DNA of 52,305 nucleotides, the filler included, from Squatina squatina (lineage: Eukaryota): NCBI GenBank assembly GCA_031763465.1. It is 3 parts of 3 records of this genome, joined end to end, with 100 filler letters (N's around TTAATTAATTAA, not from the genome) between each part and the next. Parts side by side here need not be neighbours in the genome. Positions count along the whole stretch, not along the records: positions 22,071 to 35,447 come from JARFOE010000004.1; 2 more parts are not named here. One strand, 5' to 3'. The notes under the pieces are model-generated. The model did not search any database. It was not told the origin of the DNA and saw only the letters and a program-made list of their open reading frames with translations. Below, piece after piece: positions 14,284 through 47,109 of the stretch (the stretch's first letter is position 1; each line of letters starts with the position of its first letter). The position numbers and the translations under genes are program-made.

Positions 14284-16373
14284 GTTATACAACCTGTCCG
14301 TTATACACCCGTCCGTTATACACTCTGTCCATTGTACACCCTGTCCTTTATACACCCGCCCGTTATACACCCTGTCCGTTATACACCCGACCGTATACAC
14401 CCCGCCCGTTATACAACCCGCCCATTATACACCCTGTCCGTTATACACCCTGTATGTTACACACCTTGTCCGTTATGCACCGGCCCGTTATACACTCTGT
14501 CCATTATACACCCTGTCCGTTATACACCCTGTATGTTACACACCTTGTCCTTTATACACCCGCCCGTTATACACCCTGTCCGTAATACACCCGTCCGTTA
14601 TACACTCTGTCCATTACACACCCTGTCCGTTATACACCCGCCCGTTATACAAACTGTCCGTTATACACCCTGCCTGTTATAAACCCTGTCCGTTATACAC
14701 CCCGTCCGTTATACACCCCGCCCATTATACACCCCGTCTGTTATACACCCCACCCGATACACACCCCGTCTGCTATGCAGCCCGTCTGTTATACACTCTG
14801 CCCGATATGTACCCTGTCCGTTATACACCGCGTCTGTTATACACCGCGTCCGTCATACACCCCGCCCATTATACACCCAGTCCGTTATACACCCCGCGCG
14901 TTGTACACCCGTCCGTTATACATCCCGCCCGTTATACACCCTGTCCATTTTACACCCGCCCGTTATACACCCTGTCTGTTATACACCGCGTCCGTCATAC
15001 ACCCCGCCGATTATACAACCAGTCCGTTATACACCCCGCCCGTTATACACCCATCCGTTATACACCCTGTCCATTCTACACCCGCCCGTTATACACCCTG
15101 CCCGTTATACACAGCGTCCGTTTTACACCTCGTCTGTTATACACCCTGCCCGTTATACACCCCGTCCTATATACACACCGCCCGTTATACACCCCGTCTG
15201 TTATACACCCCACCCGATACACACCCCGTCTGTTATACAGCCTGTCTGTTATACACCCTGTCTGTTATACACCCGCCCGTTATACACCCTGTCCGTTATG
15301 CACCCTGCCTGCTGTACACCCTCTCTGTTATACACCCCGTCCGTTATCCAACCTGTCCGTTACACACCCTTCCTTTATACACCCTGTCCCTTCTACACCC
15401 TGTCCGTTATACACCCACCCATTATACAAACTGTCCGTTATACACCCTGCCCGTTATACACCCGTCCGTGATACACCCTGTCCATCATACACCCGCCCGG
15501 TATACACCCCGCTCGTTATACAACCTGTCCGTTATACACCCGTCCGTTATACACTCTGTCCATTGTACACCCTGTCCTTTATACACCCGCCTGTTATACA
15601 CCCCGCCCATTATACAACCCGCCCATTATACACCCTGCCTGTTATAAACCCTGTCCGTTATACACCCCGCCCGTTATACACCCCGCCCGTTATACACCCA
15701 GTCCGTTATACACCCCGCCCGTTATACACCCGTCCGTTATACACCCTGTCCATTGTACACCCGCCCGTTATACACCCTGCCTGTTATACACCGCGTCCGT
15801 TATACACCCCGTCTTTTATACACCCTGCCCGTTATACACCCCGTCCGTTATACACCCCGTTCGTTATACACCCCGTCTGTTATACACCCCACCCAATACA
15901 CACCCCGTCTGTTATACAGCCTGTCTGTTATACACCCGCCCGTTATACACCCTGTCCGTTATGCACCCCGCCTGTTGTACGCCCTGTCCGTTATACACCC
16001 TGTCTGTTATACACCCCGCTCGTTATACACCCTGTCTGTTATACACCCTGTCCGTTATACACCGCGTCTGTTGTACACCGTCTGTTGCACACCCGCCCGT
16101 TATACACCCGCCCGTTATACACCCCGCCCGTTATACACCCTGTCCTTTATACATCCTGTCTGTTATACACCCCGCCCGTTATACACCATGTCCCTTATAC
16201 ACCCCGTCCGTTATACACCCCATCTGTTATACACCCTGTCCTTTATACACCCCGTCTGTTATACACCCCGCTCGTTATACACCCTGTCCTTATACACCCC
16301 GTCTGTTATACACCCTGTCCTTTATACACCCCGTCTGTTATACATCCTGTCCGTTATACACCCCGCTCGTTAT
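14284..16373. repeat. Minisatellite, 15-16 bp unit (consensus about GTTATACACCCYGYCC), roughly 130 copies, gap-bounded on both sides
   Basis: Continuous repeats of ttatacaccc(t/c)g(t/c)c(c/t)g; produces the spurious YTP/VIHP-rich ORFs. Confidence 0.97.
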
Positions 16374-22070: not shown

Positions 22071-22445
22071 AAAGTCTTTAGACAAGCTGCAGAGGCATTT
22101 CAATCCTTTAGTAGCATTTATAATCACTGAAATAGCAGAAGAACAAGAGATTAAGCAGTGACTGAGAAAAATGTAGGGAAAATGTAGGCCTGCCTGTGGT
22201 GAATGCCTGACATGCCTCTTGAAACCTAGCAGTTATTATAAATTTTGAATTTATGCTATCACATCGTATTTTCTCTTTACTCCCTTTTTACACATTTGTT
22301 TTTCTTTGCGATAAAAATAAGTGGACTTAAACATCTCAATTAAAGGGCCAGATTGTCAATGCGTTTCATAAAGGCAATCTTTGCAGCAGCTGCTAAGTAT
22401 TTTTGGGCAGTACGAGGTCCCATCTGTTATGAAAGATGGACTTAC

Positions 22446-22679
22446 CTTACAGTTACACTGTCCACTGTATTCTGCACATGAACATGTTCCCACTTCATCA
22501 CAGGTTTGACTCTCTGTCCCTGCCAGACCACAGTCACAGTGCCTGCACTGTGGATAAGCCCAGTAACCTGCTCTGCATTGGTTGCATTTTTCCCCCGTGA
22601 ACTCTGGATGGCAGAAGCAGCAGCCTGTCACATCATCACACTGAAGGTTTAAAGATCCCACAGTAGTACAGTTACAGGG
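22446..22679 (-). CDS. LAMA2: Laminin alpha-2 exon (LE modules; homologue of human exon 23)
   Basis: poly-T tag|CCC...AAG|gtaagt, 234 bp; PCNCTTVGSLNLQCDDVTGCCFCHPEFTGEKCNQCRAGYWAYPQCRHCDCGLAGTESQTCDEVGTCSCAEYSGQCNCK is closer to recalled LAMA2 (ACNCSTVGSLDFQC...CHPKFSG...GHWNYPRC) than to LAMA1. Confidence 0.93.
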
Positions 22680-22829
22680 CTAAAAAAAAAACAAGAGAAG
22701 GCAATAAAAGAAATACACCTTTGCAAAATGTTGACCAAATGCTTACCATGTTTAACGTCTAAAACATCATGCAATCCTCAGCTAAGAATGAAACAAAAGA
22801 ATCAATCCAAAACAGCTGTTAAACTCATT

Positions 22830-23284
22830 GGCCACAATTTTCCTTACCAAGGAGATGTCGGTGGCGGGTCATGACCCCGCTCTGGTCTCTATCCTGGCCT
22901 CTGACATAACTTTCCATTGATTGGGCTTGTTAAGCTCACCCAGCAGGTTTCCCGGCCAATTGAAGGAAGCGAGTCTGATGACGTCATTTCATGATGCGTT
23001 ATCAACTGGTTTCCTTAAAGGGACCATGCACAAAGTTATTTGGACAGTTGTGGTGTCAGTGTTCTACAACACTGAAGTGCTGCAAACACTGACAAACACT
23101 GCACAGAGGTGAACTGCTGCATCCAGGCACTTCCATGGCTCCCTCCAAATGCTTATGGAGGGAGTCACAGCACACAGGGAGGTCCTCCTTCCTTCTCATG
23201 GGCAGAAGAGACCGCCCCAGGAGATCAACACAGCCTGGTTGCGCATTGCACAGGACGGCACACGCAGGGATGTGGTCAGGAGGA
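22830..23284 (+). mobile_element. Harbinger-type element fragment with Myb/SANT-like remnant, in LAMA2 intron
   Basis: LQMLMEGVTAHREVLLPSHGQKRPPQEINTAWLRIAQDGTRRDVVRR resembles the same Myb/SANT family; truncated by a gap. Confidence 0.6.
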
Positions 23285-23858
23285 NNNNNNNNNNNNNNNN
23301 NNNNNNNNNNNNNNNNNNNNNNNNNNNNNNNNNNNNNNNNNNNNNNNNNNNNNNNNNNNNNNNNNNNNNNNNNNNNNNNNNNNNAACAGGCAGATACAGA
23401 ATAAATATTCCATCTCTTGTGCCCAATCATGTGCCTTAACCTAATTTCAGAACACAATGCCCTACAGCATCAGAATAACAATTTATAACTGCCACAGTAT
23501 TTATTTAATACAAACAGTATTTATTTATCCTGGCAGCTTGGGTGTGCTACAAATCTGTGCCAAATTCTGGGCAGTTTTATGCTGGGCCCTTTGCCCATTA
23601 GACATTTAGCTAAGCCTGTCCAAATTTGTTTAATACAGTATCTTATAATCAGCAAAAGATAGAAAACTTTCACTGCATCATTCTGGATTGGATTCAAATC
23701 CAGATCTAAAATCTTTAACATTATATAACTCTATAAAAATGTGCAATGATATTTCAAAAATGTGACACACGTTTCTCAAAAGGGAAAGCAATCATTTTCC
23801 TTAATCCACACAATAATTATAAAGGAAGACACAGCACACAGGCAAAATGCACTTTTAC

Positions 23859-24140
23859 CCCTCTGGCAGAGGGTGTGGCAGGCTTGTATGCACCACGTGG
23901 ACAGCCGCCAATACCAGTTGCCCACCACTGTCGATGTTGGCTCTGAAGAGGTTTTGCCATCTGTGAATCCTTATGGTACTGCTGTTCATAGAGCTGCCTG
24001 CTGAGATCACAGCGTTTCCCCAAGAAGCCTGGCTTACAGATACAGTTCCCTGTTTTGTCACACCGAAGTGACATGGAACCGATGGGACTGCACTGACATG
24101 ACATACAGACCTTCTTTTCATGATCCCACCAGCAGTTAGG
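23859..24140 (-). CDS. LAMA2: Non-canonical laminin alpha-2 cassette exon (atypical LE module with insertion)
   Basis: gtaaag|CCT...GGG|gtaaaa, 282 bp, phase 0/0, open; PNCWWDHEKKVCMSCQCSPIGSMSLRCDKTGNCICKPGFLGKRCDLSRQLYEQQYHKDSQMAKPLQSQHRQWWATGIGGCPRGAYKPATPSARG. LE-type Cys spacing, same strand and between other LAMA2 exons. The donor position is less certain than the acceptor. Confidence 0.8.
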
Positions 24141-27100
24141 CTTTACAGTCCACAGAACAGAATATCAAAAAAAAAACACAAAAATCACGCTCAGTTTTCA
24201 GTTGGGAAATGATTCAAGTAGAAATCTGGCAATGGGAATACAACCAACCTGTATCGGGAAGCCTTTCCATGTTTCTCGCAAGTCATAAAACCAGGGTTTC
24301 TAAAAACAGAGAGAAACAGCAATTCGCATTAAAAAGGAAGAATTTGTAAGCATCAGGGGTGTGGGTGGGTGGGAGGCAGGCAAGGGAAAGAAATGGTTGA
24401 GTTGGGTGTAATAGGCCCCGTTACCAGGGTAACCGGGGCCTGCAACAGACTCTCGCCCTGAATCCCTGGGTTCCGTGTGCAAACAGAGGGGGCCAGTGTT
24501 CCGTGCAGCTCGATCTTGGCCCGGGCCATCAGATAACAAACGCACTTGGCTGGCATTCAGGGACTGTGAGTACACCACGTACTTATTAATGCAGCCGATC
24601 TGTTTAAAAGCAAAAAGTCACAGGGTGCGAGGGCGGCCATTTTAACAAAGGCCGTGTCCTCGGCCTCGGCCCCCCCCCCCTCATTAGTCTTTCGGCTCGC
24701 AAACGACAAAACTGTTAGGCGTTGGNNNNNNNNNNNNNNNNNNNNNNNNNNNNNNNNNNNNNNNNNNNNNNNNNNNNNNNNNNNNNNNNNNNNNNNNNNN
24801 NNNNNNNNNNNNNNNNNNNNNNNNNTTGCTTTTTATCATGGTGAAGTTCGGCCAGCGAGATTATGCAGCAGTAGGCAAAATTATTTTGAATAGGTCACTC
24901 AGGTTTTTTATGCAGCAATGGAGATGCTGATTGAACAAGTTAATAGCAGGAAGGAGGGAGGTGCTCTTTCCCTCTGGCGGGAGACAAGTGTGAAGTCAAC
25001 AGGCATGGAAAGAGGTGGCAAAAGATGTGCTGCTCAAAAGGAATCTGTATTTTTAATTTGCTGCTGGCACCTCGGTAAATAGTTTCAGACTTTTTGAGCT
25101 TCACAGTGGGTGGAATATAACCTCAGTTGTGGAAAGCCAGATTTTAGAAGTGCCATTGCACTGAACTTGCACAGGTTAAGATTGAAGTAGTTGAAAAGTG
25201 ATGATCATGACTCATTTGTTGAGCAAAGGCCTTCTCATTCCAGGGAGGCCTGTAGAAGCCATTGATAACATAACTACGGTGGTGGCCTATATATGTGAGT
25301 CTAGAAGTCAGGCTGTTATGGTTGGAGACAAATGGTGGCCTGTGGTGTCTAATGCAGTCATTTCTACCTGCTATTTATGACACTGCACCTTTAGTGGTAC
25401 TGGGCAAAAAGCACCTCTTTAGGTACAACTCCATTCAGTTGAAGCTATTAATACTCCCTGGTTAATATTACAGTGCTAACACCGTACTTGCATGAAAGAT
25501 TCGGTCGCAGAGCTGTAATATAAATGTGCCACCTCTAATTAGTTTTTTTAATCTGTATGTAAAACAAATGACTAGAACAAAATGCGAAAAATTAACAGTT
25601 GAGGTATGAGGGCCTCAGTATATCAAAGTAGTGCCCAGTTTCCATTCAATTACAAGATACTAGTACATGCTGTTAGTCCTTTAAATATTTTTCTCCTGGT
25701 AGATCATGTATGTTAAACTGCCAGGGCCATGCATCATACTTACTGAATTAACTACTGGCTAAAATGGACAGAAAAGATAGTTTCAACAGAATGATGACTA
25801 TCATGTGCTTTGAACAATTAGAGAATTTATACAATACAGTAAATGTGCACAATGCAAAATCTATTTCCCCACACTTCTGTCCCCATACATCAACCTGGAT
25901 ACATGTTTTGGCTTATTTACGTTATAGGTGTTCTCACTGCAAACAGCAAGTTATTCCTCTTTATACTCTCATTTGACATTGTAGCTGGACAGTTTTCAGC
26001 TTTCTTTTTTTAATACTTAAAATGTTATATTCTAGGTGGTCGTTATAAGGTTTTCAAAACAGTTAAAAAGAAATAACCTGCATTTACACCTTATTATGTC
26101 CTCAAGATGTCCCAAAGCATTTTATAACCAATTAATAACGTTTGAAATGCATTTATTGTTGTTATATCGGCAAATACGTGAAGGGTTTATCTTAAACTAT
26201 GGCAACTATATTTAAGCAAAAGTCATTGTGAACAACTGGAAGATGCAGTACCATGTATGAATCGTTGCTTGCTCTGGTGCTGCCAAGTTTTTTCCTGTAA
26301 GTCTGAAAGTTCTAACTCGTTTACTCAAAGAGAAGTATGGCATGTTGGAAGCAAAGTTACAACTGACTTCTGCGCATTCAGACTTATTTTATCTCTATTC
26401 TAATACCATGGATTTCTTCCAGCTTATGTCTGCTACACTTGACAGAGTAATATAATCAAAAGGAGACATGGGGCAATTTTCATTGCGTTTTTAATGTTCA
26501 TATTGCTACTATAATTAAAAATATAATAAAGGCAGTTTCTTTCAAACAGCTGTGGATCCTGCTGAGATTTGAATACAATAGAATTCTAGACAGTAAAAGT
26601 GTAGAAAAAGGACAGAAAATGAGCAATTTGGTTGCTGGTGTTTGGTTTCTTTTGTGGACTTTTTTTTGCAATTGACAGCTCTTTGAATTTTCCAACAATA
26701 GAGGGACTGGCACGTACACTAATGCNNNNNNNNNNATAGCTTTGAAAACATAACCTCAAACAATAGTGAAAGAACACATGAATGCTGCTCCATGTATTAA
26801 AGCATACTGATTTATCAGTATACAATAATACAAAAGAGAAAAGAGTGGTGGCATACTTTACTTTCAATTTTTAATTCTCCTGGACCACAGGCAATTTTTC
26901 ACATCTCGGTGTAAGCTCATTAATAGCCAGCCCAGATCCTGCATGTTTTGATGCTGAAAGATCACTACAGAGATTGGCCTAGTTGTGTCAACTTGTTGAG
27001 GGCAGCATTGTCATTCGAATGTGGCAGACAGATAGACCGGGGCTACAGAATCCACATGCTCAGCATGCCTTGGACTTGGCCCAAGCTTTATTAGCAGTAT

Positions 27101-27538
27101 TTTTTCTACAATCTCATAAAACACTTTCATACAAATATCATGCCAATTATTCTTTGAAGTTCTTTGGATCCTTCTCCAGTTAATAAGAAGTCAATTTTCA
27201 ATTGCCTACAGTCATTTAACTCCAAAGAAATTTAATGTATATAAAGTGATTTTAGAAAGTGCTTGAGACACATGATAAGGTGCATTGTTATAATTCTTAT
27301 TCTTTTATTTTTAAACTAAAAAATTACAACTGGATCTGGGAGGCATTGCAAAACAGGTAAGTAGTTCAAACTGAATACAGTCCCCACCACTTATAGCATT
27401 GGTGTCAATGAGATTTGCTCACTATATGCGGTAGCTGGNNNNNNNNNNNNNNNNNNNNNNNNNNNNNNNNNNNNNNNNNNNNNNNNNNNNNNNNNNNNNN
27501 NNNNNNNNNNNNNNNNNNNNNNNNNNNNNNNNNNNNNN

Positions 27539-27630
27539 ATGAGGTAGATCAGCCATCACCTTATTGAATGGCAGAGCAGGCTTGAACAGCCAAATGGCCG
27601 ACTCCTGTTCCTATTTCTTATGTTCTTATA
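27539..27630 (+). mobile_element. CR1 LINE 3' tail
   Basis: gatcagccat...attgaatggcagagcaggcttga...aatggccgactcctgttcctatttcttatgttcttat. Confidence 0.72.
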
Positions 27631-29150
27631 ATACTGCTGCAGGGGAGTTAAAGGCTGCAATTTTCAGCTGAATAAAATATTGGAAATGTAGTTTGATACT
27701 ATAATATTTTGCTTAAAATTAAGCAGTACATTTCAAATAATTTATACATAAAGAACCTTCCCTTCAAGGATAGGGTAACAGAAACAGAATCTAAAACCGC
27801 ATTGTAAATCCAATGTCCTTCCTCATTTTGGAACAGGGTAAGGATGGATAGAGTTTGGTCTCAAATTAAATTTATCCATAACTATCAACTAACAGACCAA
27901 AATATATTTCAACTATGAATAGACCCTGATATGTTTCAACCAGCTTATCACATTACTTACCAGCTATTTCTAATAACTCAATCATTTTTTCCTACTTGTT
28001 TTCATTTTTGTGACGTTTATTTGTCTCTACCTTTATTGCTCTTATGCCTGTATGCTCTCGTTTGTAGCATCATTGCTCCTTTGCTTCCAAAATAATATAA
28101 ACTGCAGCATATGTTACTTAGTGTAGCTCCCCCACTGACTAGTGTGATTAGTCTGACAGAAATAGCCCTCTGCAGTGACACATAATGACAGGTGTCTCTT
28201 TCAACTGTAACACTTGCAGACACTCCCAATATAACATGTTTTTCTTTACACGATTAGCAGTATATCAAAGAATACCCTTTAAATGAATCATCTCCTAATA
28301 TGGTGTGGACTTTCCAATTCTGTAATCACTTATGTTGTGTTTTTGCATTTCTGGGAAACTAAAATCTTATATTTAGAAATACTGGAACATCAATAAATGA
28401 TTGTGTTCTAACTATTGAGGAATCACCACGTTTTATTTTATTGTTTTACTAAGGTCAAAAAGCCAGTGAACTGAAAACACTGACATTTCAAAATATTAAT
28501 TTTCTGCAGGTGCAGAAAGCCATGAATTGTTTCTTTGGTAGAACACTTCATGGGTCAATCTATGTCAAATCAGTTTTATAAAGGCATAAGTACATCTTTA
28601 GAGAGAACATGAAGGTATTAGAGGTTAAATTTTCATAATGTGTCAGATTGAAGTACTGAAAAAGTTGATCTCAAGTAAACTAATCCTGTTTGAGAATATT
28701 TGGAAAGTTCAACTATATACAGTACAACTGGCCAGGTTTATTTATACTCTGTTCTCAATCACCCTGATAATATAAAGGGTGGGTTTTATTTTTAGTTTGA
28801 TGACTTTCAGGTAAATTGCATGTGTGTGTCAGATTCCAGTAGAATTACTTCAACATTTGAAGGACTATTTTTTAATAAGTTTCCATGAGGCTAATATGAT
28901 TGCCGTTATATATCACATTGTTTATAAAAAGATGTGCTATTACTATAAATTAATGTTACAGAACATGAGAAAAACAAAGTACATAGTCACAGAATGTGGA
29001 ATATAGTCTATTTCAAGAAACGGNNNNNNNNNNTAAGTCACAACCAACTTTTGTGCAACAAACTTTGGCTTTGAACTTTTTTCACCAGTTAAGCTTTTAA
29101 AAGTTCCCAATAGCTGTAGGAACAAAACAAAAAGACCAGAGAGTTCTTAC

Positions 29151-29237
29151 CTGTCACATCGAGGTCCTGCATAGCCAGGAGGGCACCGGTCACATATTAT
29201 CTCTCCCCGAGAATCCAGGTAACAGGTTGGACTAAAA
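29151..29237 (-). CDS. LAMA2: Laminin alpha-2 exon (LE module; homologue of human exon 18)
   Basis: catag|TTTTAGT...GACAG|gtaaga, 87 bp, phase 2/2; FSPTCYLDSRGEIICDRCPPGYAGPRCD(R) versus recalled LAMA2 FSPTCHLDRSLGLICDGCPVGYTGPRCER. Confidence 0.9.
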
Positions 29238-29665
29238 CTATGTTGTTCATGTTGTGCAGACACAGACACAAAAAGATAAACCAAAGAAAATTGTATTAGC
29301 TGCATAGCCGAGTACTCTTTACTGAAATCATCACTGTGAACCAGACAAGGTCTATTTCTTCTTTCCGGCACCAAAGATAGAGCAGGGATCTCATTCCAGC
29401 TAACAGTCTCTGGAATTACTATTGGGTATTTCGGCCGACACTGAGTATAGTAAAAGGATGTCAGCATCTCAATGGCATTTCAGTCTGAAATTCCCTGTAG
29501 TCTATAACACTGTACTATAAAAAAAGGAATGTACAGCTGCTTGCCTGTGCCCTGAAGAGCTTAGCNNNNNNNNNNNNNNNNNNNNNNNNNNNNNNNNNNN
29601 NNNNNNNNNNNNNNNNNNNNNNNNNNNNNNNNNNNNNNNNNNNNNNNNNNNNNNNNNNNNNNNNN

Positions 29666-29884
29666 CCATGCCTTCAGCTGCAGAGGCCCCAAGCTGTGGA
29701 ATTACCTCCCCAAACCTATTGATTCTCCTTCAACACGCTCCTTAAAGCCTACCTCTTTTTGGTCATCTGCCCTAATATCTCGTGTTGCTCGGTGTTAAAT
29801 TTTGGTTGATAATGCTCCCGTGAAGTGCCTTGGGACGTTTTGCTTCATTAAATATGCTATATAAATGCAAGTAGTTGTTGTTGC
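29666..29884 (+). mobile_element. L2 LINE 3' end
   Basis: gccttcagctg...ctccttaaagcctacctcttt...gtgaagtgccttgggacgttt...gctatataaatgcaagtagttgttgttg. Confidence 0.78.
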
Positions 29885-32123
29885 ATATTAACCATAAATC
29901 TGCTGAGATTTGGAAATGGAGGAACTGTTAACAACTCATGGAGAATAAAAGTAGGAAGAATTAAAAACTAAAGGGTTAAAAAATGTACAATCTTTGAAAC
30001 AAGTGCCATATATATATATAAATAAATGATAGTATTAAGACAATTAACCTGTGAAACCAACATGTGAGAAAAATATGCACCAAAACAACCTGTAAGTGAG
30101 CTTTTGGGAAGAGAGGGGGAATAAAGTCAGTGACAACCAATTCAAAAAATACCCATTACTATAAAGACAAGCAATACTTCTTTCTTCTTGGTTGGTTATA
30201 CTTCACGTTAAGAATAACTTCCGCTCTATTGTCCAGAGACAGGAGAAAGGGTCTGCCTGTCTGCAAGCAAAAGCCTATCGGTAAGCACCTATTACTGAAG
30301 TTTGAGCAGGATATTGTTATACACCATATGCTTACTGTGCCACAAAACATTGTTTATCTCTTCCTCCCTTTGCTGCCAGTTTTCTCCTTGCCACATTGTC
30401 CCTCTCTTCCAAGAAAGCATGAACTATGCGCAGTGCTGAGCAATAAATATTGCATTTCTAAAATAACATTTATGTGAAATGTCCTTCATTAATTACAGTT
30501 AACCTGTGGCATAAAGATAAAACACTCGCTCAAGAGAGAAGCAAATCATAAAAGCAATCATTAAGATGAAGAAAGCACCACAGTATAAAGCTAATTTCAT
30601 CATCCTTACACACTGGTAGCAATCCATCTAATATTATTGAAATAATAAAATGATAAAAGACTAGCAGAGAGTAAGAAAAATGAATTGTATTGAAGTGGTT
30701 AAAGGAGACCTTAGCAAGGTCGATCAGTTGCAAAGATTATTGTATACTCTGACCTACACCCAGGAATGGGTTTTGAGACAGCCCCGAGTCGACAACATAG
30801 CCTATCTGGGCCGTCTCCCTTTACAGCATGAGGGATTTTGCTAATAAGAAGCAGCTGTTTTCACAGTCTGATAGCTGTGAGAAACTGATGACAACCTGCT
30901 TGACCGGTGACCTTTGAACTTGACCTTCTTCCTAATACCTTCAGCTTCTGACACAGCCGCCTGGCAGGTCCTTTTCTCTTTCCCTGTTGATGTACTTCTT
31001 TTAACTGCTGTGCCCTGAACAGGATCACATGGTGCTGCAGATACAGAGGGGAGGGAGGGGGGGGGGGTGTGGTGGTGGAGAAANNNNNNNNNNNNNNNNN
31101 NNNNNNNNNNNNNNNNNNNNNNNNNNNNNNNNNNNNNNNNNNNNNNNNNNNNNNNNNNNNNNNNNNNNNNNNNNNNNNNNNNNCGAGCTTAGTACAAGGA
31201 AGATCCTATTTGAAGTTCGCCATGTCATTGCAGAAAAATAATGAAATAAATTTAAGATAACTACTGCTTTTGTTTTTAAAAAGGGTAGTCGTTTAAGTAA
31301 CAAGTATTCTCCCTAGACTTTCCTTTCCTCTTTTATAAATCATTAATAATGAAATGTATGGGTAAGGATGTATCTGCACAAGCGTGACAACTTGTTGCTT
31401 ATTTATACGGGACAAATTTATTNNNNNNNNNNAAATAGTGCATTATTTAAATGATGTAATTCAGCAATAATGGCAAATTAGCAGTAGCGTATTTCACAGC
31501 CTTCCTTGCCATGGCACAAGCAAATAACATATGTCTCCTTTGTAAGGGGAAAGTGTAGTCCCGTATCTCTTCTTTGGGCCGATTACGGTAGAAAATTAAC
31601 ATTGTGATTCTATTTGTGACAGCCGAGAAAAGAAATGAAAAACAGACGAGCTCTCTGTCATTTCAATTTTGGTAAGATCTATCTTCTCAACCAGCTTGTC
31701 CTGTTTTCCAAGAAACAATGGAAAAAGGTGTGATGGGCTGCCTCTCATGTATGTCACTGTGCTCAGTATGCCAGGGCTCATGCATATATGTACAACCACG
31801 CAAAGGGAGAGGTTTAAGCAAAATATTTTATTTTAATGCACGTGGCTAGCAGTTTGTCACAGGGGCAGACCTCTTGTCCATACCTTCCTACAGGATATTT
31901 AAATATGAAGCAAGAGGGCTTACAGTTAGCAGTGGTTAATTTAACTATTTTCACTGGCATTTAAGTCTTTGGTGTTCCTATCCTCTATGCCAGTGTAAAA
32001 TTCAATCATTAAAGCTTGCAGTCAATAAGCCTAACTACAGGAAGTGGGCTGAGCTTTTGAACTTCAATAAACTGTAATACTATTTGCTGTAAATGTATTG
32101 TAGTAAGGAAATCTCATTTCTAC

Positions 32124-32335
32124 CTATAGATGGCAGTCTGGTCGCTGCTATAGGTGGCCCTTATTAAAAGGCGGGTAATGTTTGCCAGAACAGTCATGAA
32201 GTCCTTTCTATTCACGGGTGTCTTAGTTGTATGAATGACAAAGTTCTCTGGTCGTAGTACTATCACTTCGGTGTGCTCTGTCAACGGATCAAGCTCAATT
32301 CCTTCAACACCACTGCTTATGTGGATACCATTACC
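32124..32335 (-). CDS. LAMA2: Laminin alpha-2 exon (L4a domain; homologue of human exon 14); absent from the ORF track
   Basis: tttattag|GGT...TATAG|gtagaa, 212 bp; GNGIHISSGVEGIELDPLTEHTEVIVLRPENFVIHTTKTPVNRKDFMTVLANITRLLIRATYSSDQTAIY(R) has the RKxFMTVLAN motif. Confidence 0.92.
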
Positions 32336-32502
32336 CTAATAAAGAAAACAAAAGACAAAATTAGCATGTTACATGCCCTAAGCTAATTCTTTGCTTGAAA
32401 TGAAAAGCTAGAGATGTTTTTGCTATCTGCCCGAGAGCGGTATGTCATGGCTTTCAGTAAATGAGTTGATAATCCTGTGAATCCTGTGAAACCTGCTTTG
32501 AT

Positions 32503-33128
32503 AACAAAACAGCTTGCATTTATATAGCACCTTTAATATAGTAAATGCCCCAAAGTGCTTCACACAGACGTAATCAGATAAAAACAGATACGGAGACAAT
32601 GGGCGAATATTAGAAAGGTGGCTTTGTCAAAGATATGGGTATTAAGGTGGCATTAAAGAAGCGGAGAGGAAAATGAGGAGGTGGAGGGGTTTTGGGTGGG
32701 AATTCCAGAAGGCCAAAGTCAGAGGAACAGAGAGTTTTGGGTGTTGTACGACTGGCGGAGTTTACCAAGATATGTTGAGGTATGGCCATGAAGGGTTCAA
32801 ACATGAGGATGAGAATTTTAAATTTAAGGCATTGGGGGACTGGGAATTAATGTAAGTCAGCAAGTACAGGAGTGATGAATGAGCTGGACTTATTGTGGGA
32901 TAGGATACAGGCAACAGAGTTTTAGATGAACTGTAGTTATGGAAGCTGGACAATGGGAGGTTGAACAGGAGAGCATTGGAATGCTCAAGTCTGGAGGTGA
33001 CTGTAATGTAATGAAAGTAATGGATGAGAGTTTCAGCAGCAGATAGTGTAAGGCAGCAGCGGCAGGCGATGTTACTGAGGTGGATATAGGCAATCTTTGT
33101 GATGGAGTGTGTAAGAAGTCAGAAGCTC
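32503..33128 (-). mobile_element. L2 LINE 3' fragment
   Basis: cttgcatttatatagcacctttaa...aaagtgcttcaca tail followed by purine-rich antisense ORF2 remnant. Confidence 0.75.
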
Positions 33129-33228
33129 NNNNNNNNNNNNNNNNNNNNNNNNNNNNNNNNNNNNNNNNNNNNNNNNNNNNNNNNNNNNNNNNNNNNNNNN
33201 NNNNNNNNNNNNNNNNNNNNNNNNNNNN

Positions 33229-33398
33229 CTTAACACTTTTTGACCAAGCTTTTGGTCACCTGCCCTAATTTGTCCTAGGTGGCATGGTGTCAAACTATTT
33301 GTCTTAAAATATTCCTGTGAAGCACCTTGGGAGGTTTTACTAGGTTAAAGGCGCCATATAAATACACGTTGTTGTTGTTGTTGTTGTTATTGTTGTTG
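33229..33398 (+). mobile_element. L2 LINE 3' end with (TTG)n tail
   Basis: tttgaccaagcttttggtcacctgccctaa...gtgaagcaccttggga...atataaata then about ten gtt units (33368-33398). Confidence 0.8.
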
Positions 33399-33519
33399 AA
33401 TGAATCAAATCCTGGAACCTTCATGATGACACCTTCATGCACAAATGCCTTTTCAATGTTGCAGCCAGTCAACAATTTTAATATATATATATATATAGAC
33501 ACCTTTTTAAGTTAGATAC

Positions 33520-33693
33520 CTTTTGGCCCAAATATGCACTTGGTGCACTCCAATAATACAGCGGTGGTAAAATCCTGCTGCCTCCATAGTCTTTAATACG
33601 CAGCTGCACAAGCCCATCCAAGGTCTCCTGCCTGGGCAGAATTTTTGAAATACCTTGCAAATCAGTGAGGAACCAATCAAACATATCTGTCAC
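33520..33693 (-). CDS. LAMA2: Laminin alpha-2 exon (start of L4a/laminin IV domain; homologue of human exon 12)
   Basis: cttttag|GTG...AAG|gtatct, 174 bp; VTDMFDWFLTDLQGISKILPRQETLDGLVQLRIKDYGGSRILPPLYYWSAPSAYLGQK contains the L4 motif YYWSAPxxYLGxK. Confidence 0.92.
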
Positions 33694-35258
33694 CTAAAAG
33701 ACAAAATTTTTTTAAAAATGCATTAATTTTCTATATCAAATAAACGAAGGGGGCCTAATTGGTGTGATTTCATACCCGGGTAGCGCTGATTAGTGGCGCT
33801 ACCCGGGCCTGAGATCAGCATTGAGTGAAAAAATTAGAAAGTGCTGAATTGGGCCTGGCACCCCAGTGGCGTACAGACCCTGCCACTGGGGATGCCGTTG
33901 GCGCCGGCACCGGACATGCAACAGCATTACATTGAGCGCTGATCCCTCTCCACCCACCTGTGCATCGCGGGGGAGCTGCCTCTGGAATTGGGGCCCAGCT
34001 GCCCCACTTTCCCATGGTCCGTTAAAAGTGCATGCCCTGAGCCANNNNNNNNNNNNNNNNNNNNNNNNNNNNNNNNNNNNNNNNNNNNNNNNNNNNNNNN
34101 NNNNNNNNNNNNNNNNNNNNNNNNNNNNNNNNNNNNNNNNNNNNTCTTGAAGCTTGATTCAGCACAAAGCATATAGGTGTGAAATCCATCGTGTACGATC
34201 AGCCAAGTCCCTGACAAAAAGCGACTGTCTGGAGCTAAGACCTACTTCTGAAAGAACATGGAAGGTGATTTAAAAATTATGAATGACTGCTTCCATACAC
34301 AATTATAGTATTCTAATTTAATCCAATAACACTGGGGCAGGAAACAAATTATTGGTGGAGGGCGCCCGCTGTGAAAAAGTTTGGAACAATAATTTTTAAG
34401 ATACATGTATTAACTTTGTTGCAAATCCATCAATTTATTACTGACTTTTAGTGCATCAGAGGAGCATGGCAATCATTCACCAATATCCTTTTTCTGATGC
34501 ATGCAGCTATTGGCACCTCTGCCTGTATATTATGGTGTTCGGATATGGGCGAGTGGTTGCCATGCTCCGCTAATGCTACCCCCACCGATCCTAGTCCTCT
34601 CCATATTCCAAACCAATATGTGGAATTTCTAAAGGAAACCCATTGTGCTTTGTCTGATATGAAGGTGGGAGGAGGAATGGCAATACCATGGCAAATGGCA
34701 GATGTCAACAGCAAAGAGCAACCATCTAAAAATGACGACTATTTTATATGGGAAAGGAGATGAAACAGAGCAAATGAGGCAAAATGAACACATAGAATGG
34801 CCCAAAATGGACCGGCGCTTCATGCAACTAACTGAAATGATGGTGGAATATGGGATGCGCAACTGGTCGAAGATCTAACATAATGGATCTCTGCTTTAAT
34901 TTCCAATTGGGTTCACCCAATTTGCCGGAGTTAATTGGACAAACCAAATTTCTTATGTTCTTATGAAAAGTGATAAGCTTCTCAAATATGTTCTATAACT
35001 ATGAGTTAAGAGAGAGAAGATTAAAGTGGTGCTTCTCCAAGAACAACTTCTGCCAGCCACACATATTAGGAAACCCTGGTCACACCACCCACAATTTTCC
35101 ATTCAGTTAATGAATGGAAAATTAAAAGAAGTACGGCTGTGATTTCTCAATAGGCGTGGCTAGTGGACGAGCTCTGTGCCTTTCCTGTAAACTCAGAAAA
35201 TTACCCCCAAGGCTGTAAAACATAAACACAAGTTATTTTGCCATTCAGTAATTCTTAC

Positions 35259-35399
35259 ATTATCATAGGTCCATTGAGAGCATTCACATTCATTGGATAC
35301 CCCTGAACAGAAACACTGATCACAGCCATAGTAGTTCTCTGCCTGCAGGTTGAAGAATCCTATTTTACATCGGTCGCAGTTCTCTCCTTCAGTATTGGC
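35259..35399 (-). CDS. LAMA2: Laminin alpha-2 exon (LE module; homologue of human exon 11)
   Basis: ttgcag|GCC...AAT|gtaaga, 141 bp, phase 0/0; ANTEGENCDRCKIGFFNLQAENYYGCDQCFCSGVSNECECSQWTYDN matches recalled LAMA2 ENVEGGDCSRCKSGFFNLQEDNWKGCDECFCSGVSNRCQSSYWTY. Confidence 0.92.
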
Positions 35400-35447
35400 C
35401 TGCAAATTGCACAAATGTAAATTATATTAACGGTTATGATTAATTTA

Positions 35448-36855: not shown

Positions 36856-37493
36856 CTGGCTAACCAGCGTCTGTGAGTGTGGAGCACTGGATAACCAGTG
36901 TCTGTGAGCGTGGGACACTGGGAATCCAGTGTCTGAGAGTGTGGAACACTGAGGATTCAGTGTCCGTGAGCTTGGTGCCCCGGGGAACCCATGTCTGTGA
37001 GCGCGGAGCGTTGGATAACTAGTGTCTGTGAGCGCGGAGCGTTGGATAACCAGTGTCTGAGCAAGGAGTGCTGGATAACCAGTGTCTGTGAGCAAGGAGC
37101 GCTGGATAACCAGTGTCTGAGCAAGGAGTGCTGGATAACCAGTGTCTGTGAGCAAGGAGCGCTGGAAAACCAGTGTCTGAGCAAGGAGTGCTGGATAACC
37201 AGTGTCTGTGAGCGTGGAGCGCTGGAAAACCAGTGTCTGTGAGCAAGGAGTGCTGGATAACCAGTGTCTGTGAGCTCGGAGCGCTGGATAACCAGCGTCT
37301 GTGAGCAAGGAGCGCTGGAGAACCAGTGTTTGTGAGCGCAGAGCTCTGGATAACCAGTGTCTGTGAGCAAGAAGCGCTGGATAACCAGTGTCTGTGAGCA
37401 AGAAGCGCTGGGGAACCAGTGTCTGTGAGCGCAGAGCACTGGATAACCAGTGTCTGTGAGCAAGAAGCACTGGGGAACCAGTGTCTGAGCGTG
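36856..37493. repeat. Minisatellite, 29/31-bp unit (GCTGGATAACCAGTGTCTGTGAGCAAGGAGC), about 20 copies
   Basis: Head-to-tail repeats with no unique spacers; degenerate at the left end, runs into a gap at the right. Confidence 0.95.
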
Positions 37494-44201: not shown

Positions 44202-44422
44202 TGTTTGCTTGTCCCGTAGCCCTCCCTACGCACGGCAACTGATATTCCAACCACCAGGATAGGAAGCCCATAGCCAACTGGGAACATGTGCCGTTTCCCC
44301 AGGCACCCAGCGTTGAACACCTTCACCACCATGAGGTAGAGCTGTATCCCCTCCAGACACATCCAGGCAAACACGGTCAGGAAGAAGTAATGCAGGAACC
44401 CGGCGATGATTGCGCAGACAAC
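44202..44422 (-). CDS. ADGRE-like exon, TM3-TM4 (minus-strand paralogue)
   Basis: tttttcag|GTT...AAACA|gtaggt, 221 bp; VVCAIIAGFLHYFFLTVFAWMCLEGIQLYLMVVKVFNAGCLGKRHMFPVGYGLPILVVGISVAVRREGYGTSK. Confidence 0.92.
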
Positions 44423-46800: not shown

Positions 46801-47109
46801 AGCAATACAGCTGGACACCACACACTGCAATGGACCTGGGCAACTCACAATGTACTACACCAGGGCATCACATATTGCAATAACCGGGGCAACAAACATT
46901 GAACTACACCTGGGCATTACTGAATGCAATACACCTGGGCATCACACATTGCAATACACCTGGGCAACACTGGCTGCAATACATCGGGGCACCACACACT
47001 GCAATACACATGGGCACTACACACTGCTATGGACCTGGGCAACTCACAATGTACTACACCTAAGCATCACATATTGCAATAACCGGGGCAACAAACCTTG
47101 AACTACACC
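46801..47109. repeat. Degenerate minisatellite, about 25-bp unit (TGCAATACACCTGGGCATCACACAT), about 12 copies
   Basis: Recurring gcaatacacctgggca core; starts immediately after a CR1 tail and ends at a gap. Confidence 0.88.

Follow-up and report, generated by a model that had tools for sequence, protein, structure and literature searches.

The LAMA2 gene of the shark Squatina squatina contains a 282-bp segment, here called exon X, that is a spliced LAMA2 exon, as observed in a transcript of a related organism. Comparison with protein sequences of other species showed that it is conserved across jawed vertebrates, from sharks to mammals. We regard it as nearly certain that X is a cassette exon and that the module logic set out below is correct. 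The explanation towards which we lean is broader: an in-frame LAMA2 cassette between exons 20 and 21 would add an LE module whose loops serve as a regulated binding site. For the binding-site function itself, judged from the composition and conservation of the loops, the chances appear about even.

Exon X in the assembly and in transcripts

The window, i.e., the whole stretch of DNA that was analysed, comprises 52,305 nucleotides in three joined parts, with the LAMA2 part (positions 22071-35447) coming from JARFOE010000004.1 of S. squatina. Exon X denotes the candidate LAMA2 exon on its minus strand. Read from 24140 to 23859, X consists of stop-free codons throughout (282 bp, phase 0/0); the plus-strand frame of the same segment contains stops. 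The flanking sequences, ...GTAAAG before and GTAAAA after, give AG/GT borders, and these canonical splice sites, together with the frame-preserving length, are those of a cassette exon. With the exon numbers and lengths that we take to be canonical for LAMA2, X lies within intron 20 of the canonical transcript (Table 1).

Table 1 Features of exon X and neighbouring LAMA2 exons in the window.
Feature	Position	Strand	Remark
Cassette exon X of LAMA2, 94 codons, phase 0/0	23859..24140	-	between canonical exons 20 and 21
Residues 1-12: probably a different closing loop plus C8 (Cys12) of the exon-20 LE module; includes the extra Cys3	24105..24140	-	pairing judged from the Cys spacing of LE modules
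Residues 15-44: first six Cys (C1-C6) of the new LE module	24009..24098	-	Pfam PF00053; pLDDT about 90 in the Heptranchias model
Residues 45-79: 35-residue C6-C7 insertion, ending in the conserved RW motif region	23904..24008	-	alignment; mostly predicted disordered
Residues 80-94: C7, near-invariant RGA[YF] motif, start of the lengthened C7-C8 loop	23859..23903	-	C8 from exon 21, outside the window
3' splice site: T-rich tract, then purine-interrupted ...GACTGTAAAG acceptor	24141..24185	-	
5' splice site GTAAAA and UG-rich downstream intron segment, without GCATG in this shark	23800..23858	-	
LAMA2 exon-18 homologue, upstream anchor on the spliced contig carrying X	29151..29241	-	
LAMA2 exon-23 homologue, downstream anchor on the spliced contig carrying X	22446..22679	-	
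Three further upstream LAMA2 exons, collinear with shark LAMA2	35402-35256, 33693-33514, 32335-32087	-	tblastn

Searching the window with four LAMA2 proteins (tblastn) located six exons in collinear order, and exons 19-22 were not found in the window by this search. The sequence is gappy (3602 N in 41 N-runs, mostly of exactly 100 N), and X stands alone on a 1341-bp piece flanked by 100-N gaps. Since the protein span would need about 14 exons and six are present, the assembly has lost exons in its gaps. With exons 19-22 outside the window and X on an isolated piece, the window alone is insufficient to prove the placement of X.

The placement was established from contigs of four of the nine runs listed, all four from related organisms and presumed to be RNA, aligned to positions 22071-30400. 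None of the nine is recorded as RNA or contains half of the sequence words of the stretch, which says nothing about expression. In run X6, a contig of 8507 nt (contig 24) carries the homologues of exon 18, X and exon 23 in this order, at contig positions 2583-2673, 2992-3274 and 3593-3828, respectively. Exactly 318 nt separate exon 18 from X, and another 318 nt separate X from exon 23; the LAMA2 protein of Heptranchias predicts 318 nt for each of these two intervals. This agreement on both sides, at exact borders, indicates that X is spliced at this place and is additional to exons 19-22. Compared with 23859-24141, the contig has 19 differing letters and no gaps. One of its joints at X has CT..AC ends, and the other was placed one base away, at the G of the acceptor AG. 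Thus, the open phase 0/0 exon with AG/GT borders that the original prediction placed between the exon-18 and exon-23 homologues was borne out, on the minus strand. Mis-scaffolding of a different laminin or netrin-like gene, which had been named as a result that would overturn the prediction, is ruled out for X because contig 24 joins it to LAMA2 exons 18 and 23. In runs X1, X3 and X4, contigs covering exon 23 do not align to X; in run X3, contig 8 extends 526 letters upstream of exon 23, and the depth at 23913, from one intron-spanning contig, is 3.6. The pattern in these three runs is weakly suggestive of skipping of X.

Several other features were recorded in the window. An intact AG/GT exon of a secretin/adhesion-family GPCR (44202-44422, minus strand; Pfam 7tm_2, 75.9 bits) lies on the LAMA2 strand, upstream of the LAMA2 exons detected, and may belong to a foreign contig or a nested gene. 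A 16-bp minisatellite of about 132 copies occupies 14284-16373, with strong GC skew and long Tyr/Pro/His-rich pseudo-ORFs; two more minisatellites are found at 36856-37487 (31 bp, about 21 copies) and 46802-47109 (25 bp, about 12 copies). Segments at about 22850-23250, 26000-26250, 27546-27631 and 29757-29884 show very high contig depth in three to four runs with many loose ends, and are probably interspersed repeats, such as SINE or LINE pieces. Eight other ORFs of the window gave nothing above the Pfam cut-off.

Orthology, isoforms and taxonomic range

The X peptide is 91.5% identical over all 94 residues to residues 940-1033 of Heptranchias LAMA2 isoform X2 (XP_067840660.1), and its identity to X within named shark LAMA2 isoforms is 80-91%. 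A search with X alone returned 25 matches, every one a named LAMA2 except for a single hypothetical protein. The best full-length matches are LAMA2, not other laminins or netrins; netrins and laminin beta-2 align with the LE core only. HMMER gave 442 matches to X at E <=0.001. The matches that cover the greater part of the peptide are X segments of vertebrate type, and they include a full-length LAMA2 isoform of Larimichthys from RefSeq. A word-index homologue search with the 94-residue peptide gave no match among proteins of up to 2000 residues, and the ESM Atlas returned generic LE clusters only.

The taxonomic range was set by region searches starting from the LAMA2 isoforms of Larimichthys and a caecilian. 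X-bearing LAMA2 was listed in sharks, a skate, bichir, sturgeon, gar, bowfin, many teleosts and the coelacanth, as well as in amphibians, a lizard, birds and rat, in line with the suggestion that the exon has been retained across the shark/bony-vertebrate split. In one of these searches, the insertion pattern is present in 115 of the 120 matches listed, a proportion that is not an inclusion rate because the query contained X; one of the other five is a ctenophore protein with Ig domains. Neither lamprey nor hagfish was among the matches listed in the region and X-only searches. A sturgeon gene model that resembles LAMA1 (P0102) lacks X. In this model, the exon-21-type unit is followed directly by an identical second copy, which probably reflects an error of assembly or annotation.

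RefSeq contains pairs of LAMA2 isoforms with and without X in nine species: Scyliorhinus torazame, S. canicula, Mustelus, Amblyraja, Danio, Xenopus tropicalis, Latimeria and two Anas species. The members of each pair differ by exactly the X segment at the exon 20/21 junction, which supports the predicted position of the cassette after exon 20 and before exon 21. In zebrafish, the curated NP_001265728.1 lacks X and isoform X1 includes it. All four chicken LAMA2 models compared are without X, and both rat models compared are with X. The peptide that the original prediction named for mammalian isoforms, PNMW...GCPRGAYR, is indeed present in ORFs P0337 and P0025, and an ORF with this peptide occurs on 160 contigs. 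The predicted RefSeq isoforms (among them XP_067840660.1 of Heptranchias, XP_073788193.1 of Danio and XP_063120697.1 of Rattus) share the same X segment where exon 20 meets exon 21. All are computational predictions that come with no account of function, and the window adds one more shark orthologue to them.

Module anatomy, conservation and predicted structure

Exon X encodes nine Cys, at residues 3, 12, 15, 17, 27, 33, 35, 44 and 80. Residues 15-53 match Pfam PF00053 over profile positions 1-40 of 49 with 33.2 bits (cut-off 21). On the Cys pattern, we infer that Cys12 completes the module that starts in exon 20, that Cys15-44 represent C1-C6 of a new module, and that Cys80 is its C7. Exon 20 would end just after C7 of a module. 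When X is skipped, exon 21 would supply the closing loop and C8 of this exon-20 module. When X is included, X would instead supply the closing loop and C8 (Cys12), followed by C1-C7 of the new module, and the first Cys of exon 21 would become C8 of the latter. The isoform sequences agree with this scheme: in inclusion isoforms, C1-C7 come from X and C8 from the first Cys of exon 21, so that eight Cys are available. The stretch from exon 20 to the next module has 13-14 residues and one Cys without X, versus 99-111 residues and 9 or 10 Cys with X. On this scheme, the rod would grow from eight to nine full modules with the eight canonical Cys in place; inclusion thus probably adds exactly one LE module.

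The added module is a variant rather than a canonical LE module. It shares with LE modules (PF00053; structures 1KLO and 1NPE) the C1-C6 spacing, the above-cut-off Pfam score, the G-aromatic motif after C7 and the Foldseek matches to LE arrays, but it has 35 rather than two residues between C6 and C7, 25 rather than about 11 between C7 and C8, and a ninth Cys in fish and amphibians. In the skipped form of Mustelus, all ten pattern-matched LE modules have a C6-C7 gap of two residues, with C7-C8 gaps of 9-19. The disulfides of LE modules are C1-C3, C2-C4, C5-C6 and C7-C8; the corresponding pairing in X is putative and follows the Cys pattern.

Conservation was assessed in an alignment of 54 chosen rows, rich in fish and amphibians and with one mammal. 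The C6-C7 insertion, 35 residues long in this shark, measures 32-42 residues in every row. The C7-C8 loop of X has 17-25 residues, versus 11 at this site without X. Arg48 is present in 50 of the 54 rows, Arg71 and Trp72 are present in 53, and Gly79, Cys80, Arg82 and Ala84 are present in all, making G79-C80-x-R82-G83-A84-[YF]85 nearly or fully invariant. The insertion is the least conserved part, with a mean modal frequency of 0.62 (gap columns counted) versus 0.66-0.79 for non-Cys columns elsewhere. Its net charge has a median of +4.5 and a range from 0 to +7, with +1 in this shark. RGD, the N-glycosylation sequon and RX[RK]R each occur in the insertion in 0 of 54 rows.

These data refine the layout first proposed from the sequence. 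The closing Cys, C1-C6, the 35 Cys-free residues and GCPRGAY were read correctly, but the extra Cys3 and the lengthened C7-C8 loop had been missed. The description of the insertion as Gln/His-rich holds for this shark, whose 35 residues include 7 Gln and 2 His; what is conserved, however, is richness in Arg.

Cys3 is the odd ninth Cys of most fish and amphibians and has no evident partner; Cys occupies position 3 in 44 of the 54 rows, whereas every amniote row and three teleosts have Tyr or Thr there. A second odd Cys is found in the LE module of the exon-23 homologue (22446-22679), where an extra Cys (GCCFC) occurs in the rows compared for shark, ray-finned fish, coelacanth, amphibian and bird and is replaced by Gln in rat; it is present in the skipped isoform too. 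Co-variation gives no support for pairing between these two Cys: in birds, the exon-23 Cys is kept and position 3 is Tyr.

AlphaFold2 modeling of the Heptranchias region gave a mean pLDDT of 78.6 and a pTM of 0.41. The core blocks reached pLDDT 90-92, and values fell below 50 at residues 87-112 and 125-138, the two long loops. The prediction is thus of a folded LE core with disordered C6-C7 and C7-C8 loops. The top Foldseek matches were LE arrays (perlecan, laminin gamma-1, beta-1 and netrins) and one CELSR1 chain, with TM-scores that were all low, as expected for a flexible rod. No solved structure covering the insertion was found.

Splicing, proposed function and alternatives

The exon has already been recorded outside gene models. 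PMC12925949 lists a skipped human exon, "LAMA2 exon 21 (LAMA2-206)", of 264 nt (chr6:129292803-129293066, GRCh38), annotated as Laminin EGF and Cys-rich. X is 88 residues long in six amniote-type ORFs, and 264 nt correspond to 88 codons; matched by length and exon number, the human LAMA2-206 exon 21 is therefore most likely X. Like X, it follows exon 20, is skipped and carries a Laminin EGF annotation; it is six codons shorter than the shark exon. In heart, its PSI is given as 0.18 at 1 month (embryonic) and 0.52 at 5 months (fetal). The figure legend and tables of PMC12925949, among the portions of that source at hand, name the human exon without discussing the insertion. Its Table S6 also has a pair of LAMA2 micro-exons, one of 6 nt (domain II) and one of 12 nt (an LG domain), whose inclusion increases from embryonic to fetal heart; that they rise together with this exon suggests a coordinated LAMA2 splicing switch. 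In addition, the available text of PMC13360135 reports a skipped 234-nt exon of catfish lama2 at Chr8:27,916,751-27,916,985, with a dPSI of 0.693 by RNA-seq and validation by RT-PCR. Translation of the RT-PCR primers gives one motif at the exon-19 position and another from exon 21, and from these positions the catfish exon is likely X, although its 78 codons are fewer than in any X measured. PMC10309041, as far as its accessible portion goes, concerns exon 53 and not X.

The main text of the Diviner preprint does not mention LAMA2, and our literature search found no paper giving c.-numbered LAMA2 exon borders. Since X appears in gene models and in two surveys of splicing, its existence is not new. 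The same search, largely of openly accessible papers, found no study of the function of X, no description of its protein and no data from binding assays, mutants or proteomics. The consequence for the protein, an LE module with a long conserved C6-C7 insertion, thus appears undescribed in the literature searched. The earlier label of an uncharacterised isoform accordingly stands for protein function within this literature, but it does not stand for the isoform itself, which is recorded in RefSeq and most likely as human LAMA2-206.

A purine-interrupted acceptor and a GTAAAA-type donor are typical of regulated exons. GCATG is absent from the 474 nt downstream of X in this shark. With a peptide proxy in related taxa, GCATG-compatible dipeptides were found in the downstream-intron read-through of 23 of 24 single-exon ORFs (mean 1.75), versus 21.5% of random window stretches (mean 0.25, an AT-rich null) and 0 of 19 upstream stretches. 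These counts hint that RBFOX-type GCAUG elements lie just downstream of X in other vertebrates.

Based on these findings, we propose a plausible mechanism for the included isoform. The C6-C7 insertion and the C7-C8 loop would be flexible, as modeled, and clamped around the RW...GCxRGA[YF][RK]P motif. The Arg-rich loop may bind a putative anionic matrix or cell-surface ligand, such as heparan sulfate, a sulfated lipid or a protein. Inclusion would rise with heart maturation, possibly via the RBFOX-type GCAUG elements downstream. The near-neutral insertion in sharks (+1 here) weakens a purely electrostatic role. Fibronectin EDA/EDB and the agrin inserts are in-frame developmental cassettes that add a module or loop and have established effects on ligands. 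In contrast to these systems, inclusion of X would increase, not decrease, as the heart develops, and its binding role is putative. A precedent for an LE module of the LEb rod as a ligand site is laminin gamma-1 LEb3, which binds nidogen (as covered in the available part of PMC11260871). That site is constitutive, has a short loop and belongs to another chain, whereas the site in X would be switchable and has no known ligand.

Among the alternatives, the one that survives best is a regulated spacer or hinge, by which X would make the alpha-2 short arm one module longer and give the LEb rod a flexible joint midway along it. With no specific ligand involved, this would tune how wide-meshed or how compliant the laminin-211 polymer is. 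LE modules are termed spacers in PMC11260871, in the portion at hand, both long loops are predicted to be disordered, and the loop sequence varies while its length stays within 32-42 residues. This alternative nonetheless seems unlikely to us: a pure spacer would need neither the near-invariant RW and GCxRGA[YF] motif nor the positive charge kept in bony vertebrates, and for added length alone an ordinary LE module would do, with no loop.

It is improbable that the basic loop is a protease-sensitive site through which the included isoform sheds or loosens its N-terminal polymerising arm. The loop is disordered in the model and contains many Arg/Lys pairs, and short arms of other laminin chains are processed (PMC11260871, same portion), but the missing RX[RK]R in all 54 rows speaks against a cleavage site, and a cut between C6 and C7 would matter only with reduction-independent release.

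The origin of the exon bears on a further alternative, that X is a tolerated relic with little function of its own, either a degenerate exon-21 duplicate or a leftover invertebrate LE module. Residues 1-46 of X have Cys spacing identical to the first 46 residues of exon 21, which suggests an old duplication, and against a profile of X, the exon-21 unit scores best within LAMA2 (44.9 and 40.5 bits; next, 38.2 and 37.8). Several invertebrate units from different positions score as high or higher, up to 49.7 bits, so that these scores do not set a duplication apart from other origins. Moreover, alpha-1,2-type chains of tick, weevil and nematode have two more modules in this array, and Drosophila Wing blister (laminin alpha-1,2) has ten full modules and a 45-residue insertion in its array (PMC2148222, from the part of the paper available). 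Wing blister thus resembles the X form in its extra modules and mid-array insertion; the insertions are likened by description, and the tick, weevil and nematode arrays have none. Nevertheless, a relic is very improbable, given that the open frame, the Cys and the motif are kept in every jawed-vertebrate group sampled, that non-Cys conservation of the X core equals that of exon 20 (0.70 versus 0.66), and that the probable human counterpart is developmentally regulated in heart. Finally, the isolated 1341-bp piece in a heavily gapped scaffold and the unrelated adhesion-GPCR exon in the same window would speak for X being a misplaced piece of another laminin or netrin-like gene or an unspliced intronic ORF, but this has next to no probability, since contig 24, the named shark isoforms, the isoform pairs and the X-only matches refute it.

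Our preferred reading, a cassette whose module carries a regulated binding site, would have implications for laminin alpha-2 as a whole. In the available text of a 2024 review (PMC11260871), only alpha-3 splice forms are named, and LE modules are treated as spacers. It is possible, though somewhat short of probable, that X defines a second major form of laminin alpha-2, of jawed-vertebrate age and outside the canonical reference, which would make up about half of fetal-heart LAMA2 transcripts and carry a splice-switchable, Arg-rich ligand site under RBFOX-type control. If so, some LAMA2-related disease of muscle or heart could be due to, or modified by, variants in or near X. Should the loop bind a ligand, laminin-211/221 would gain a short-arm site that can be switched by tissue and stage. 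This would matter for recombinant laminin-211, for how replacement constructs are designed and for the reading of LAMA2 variants.
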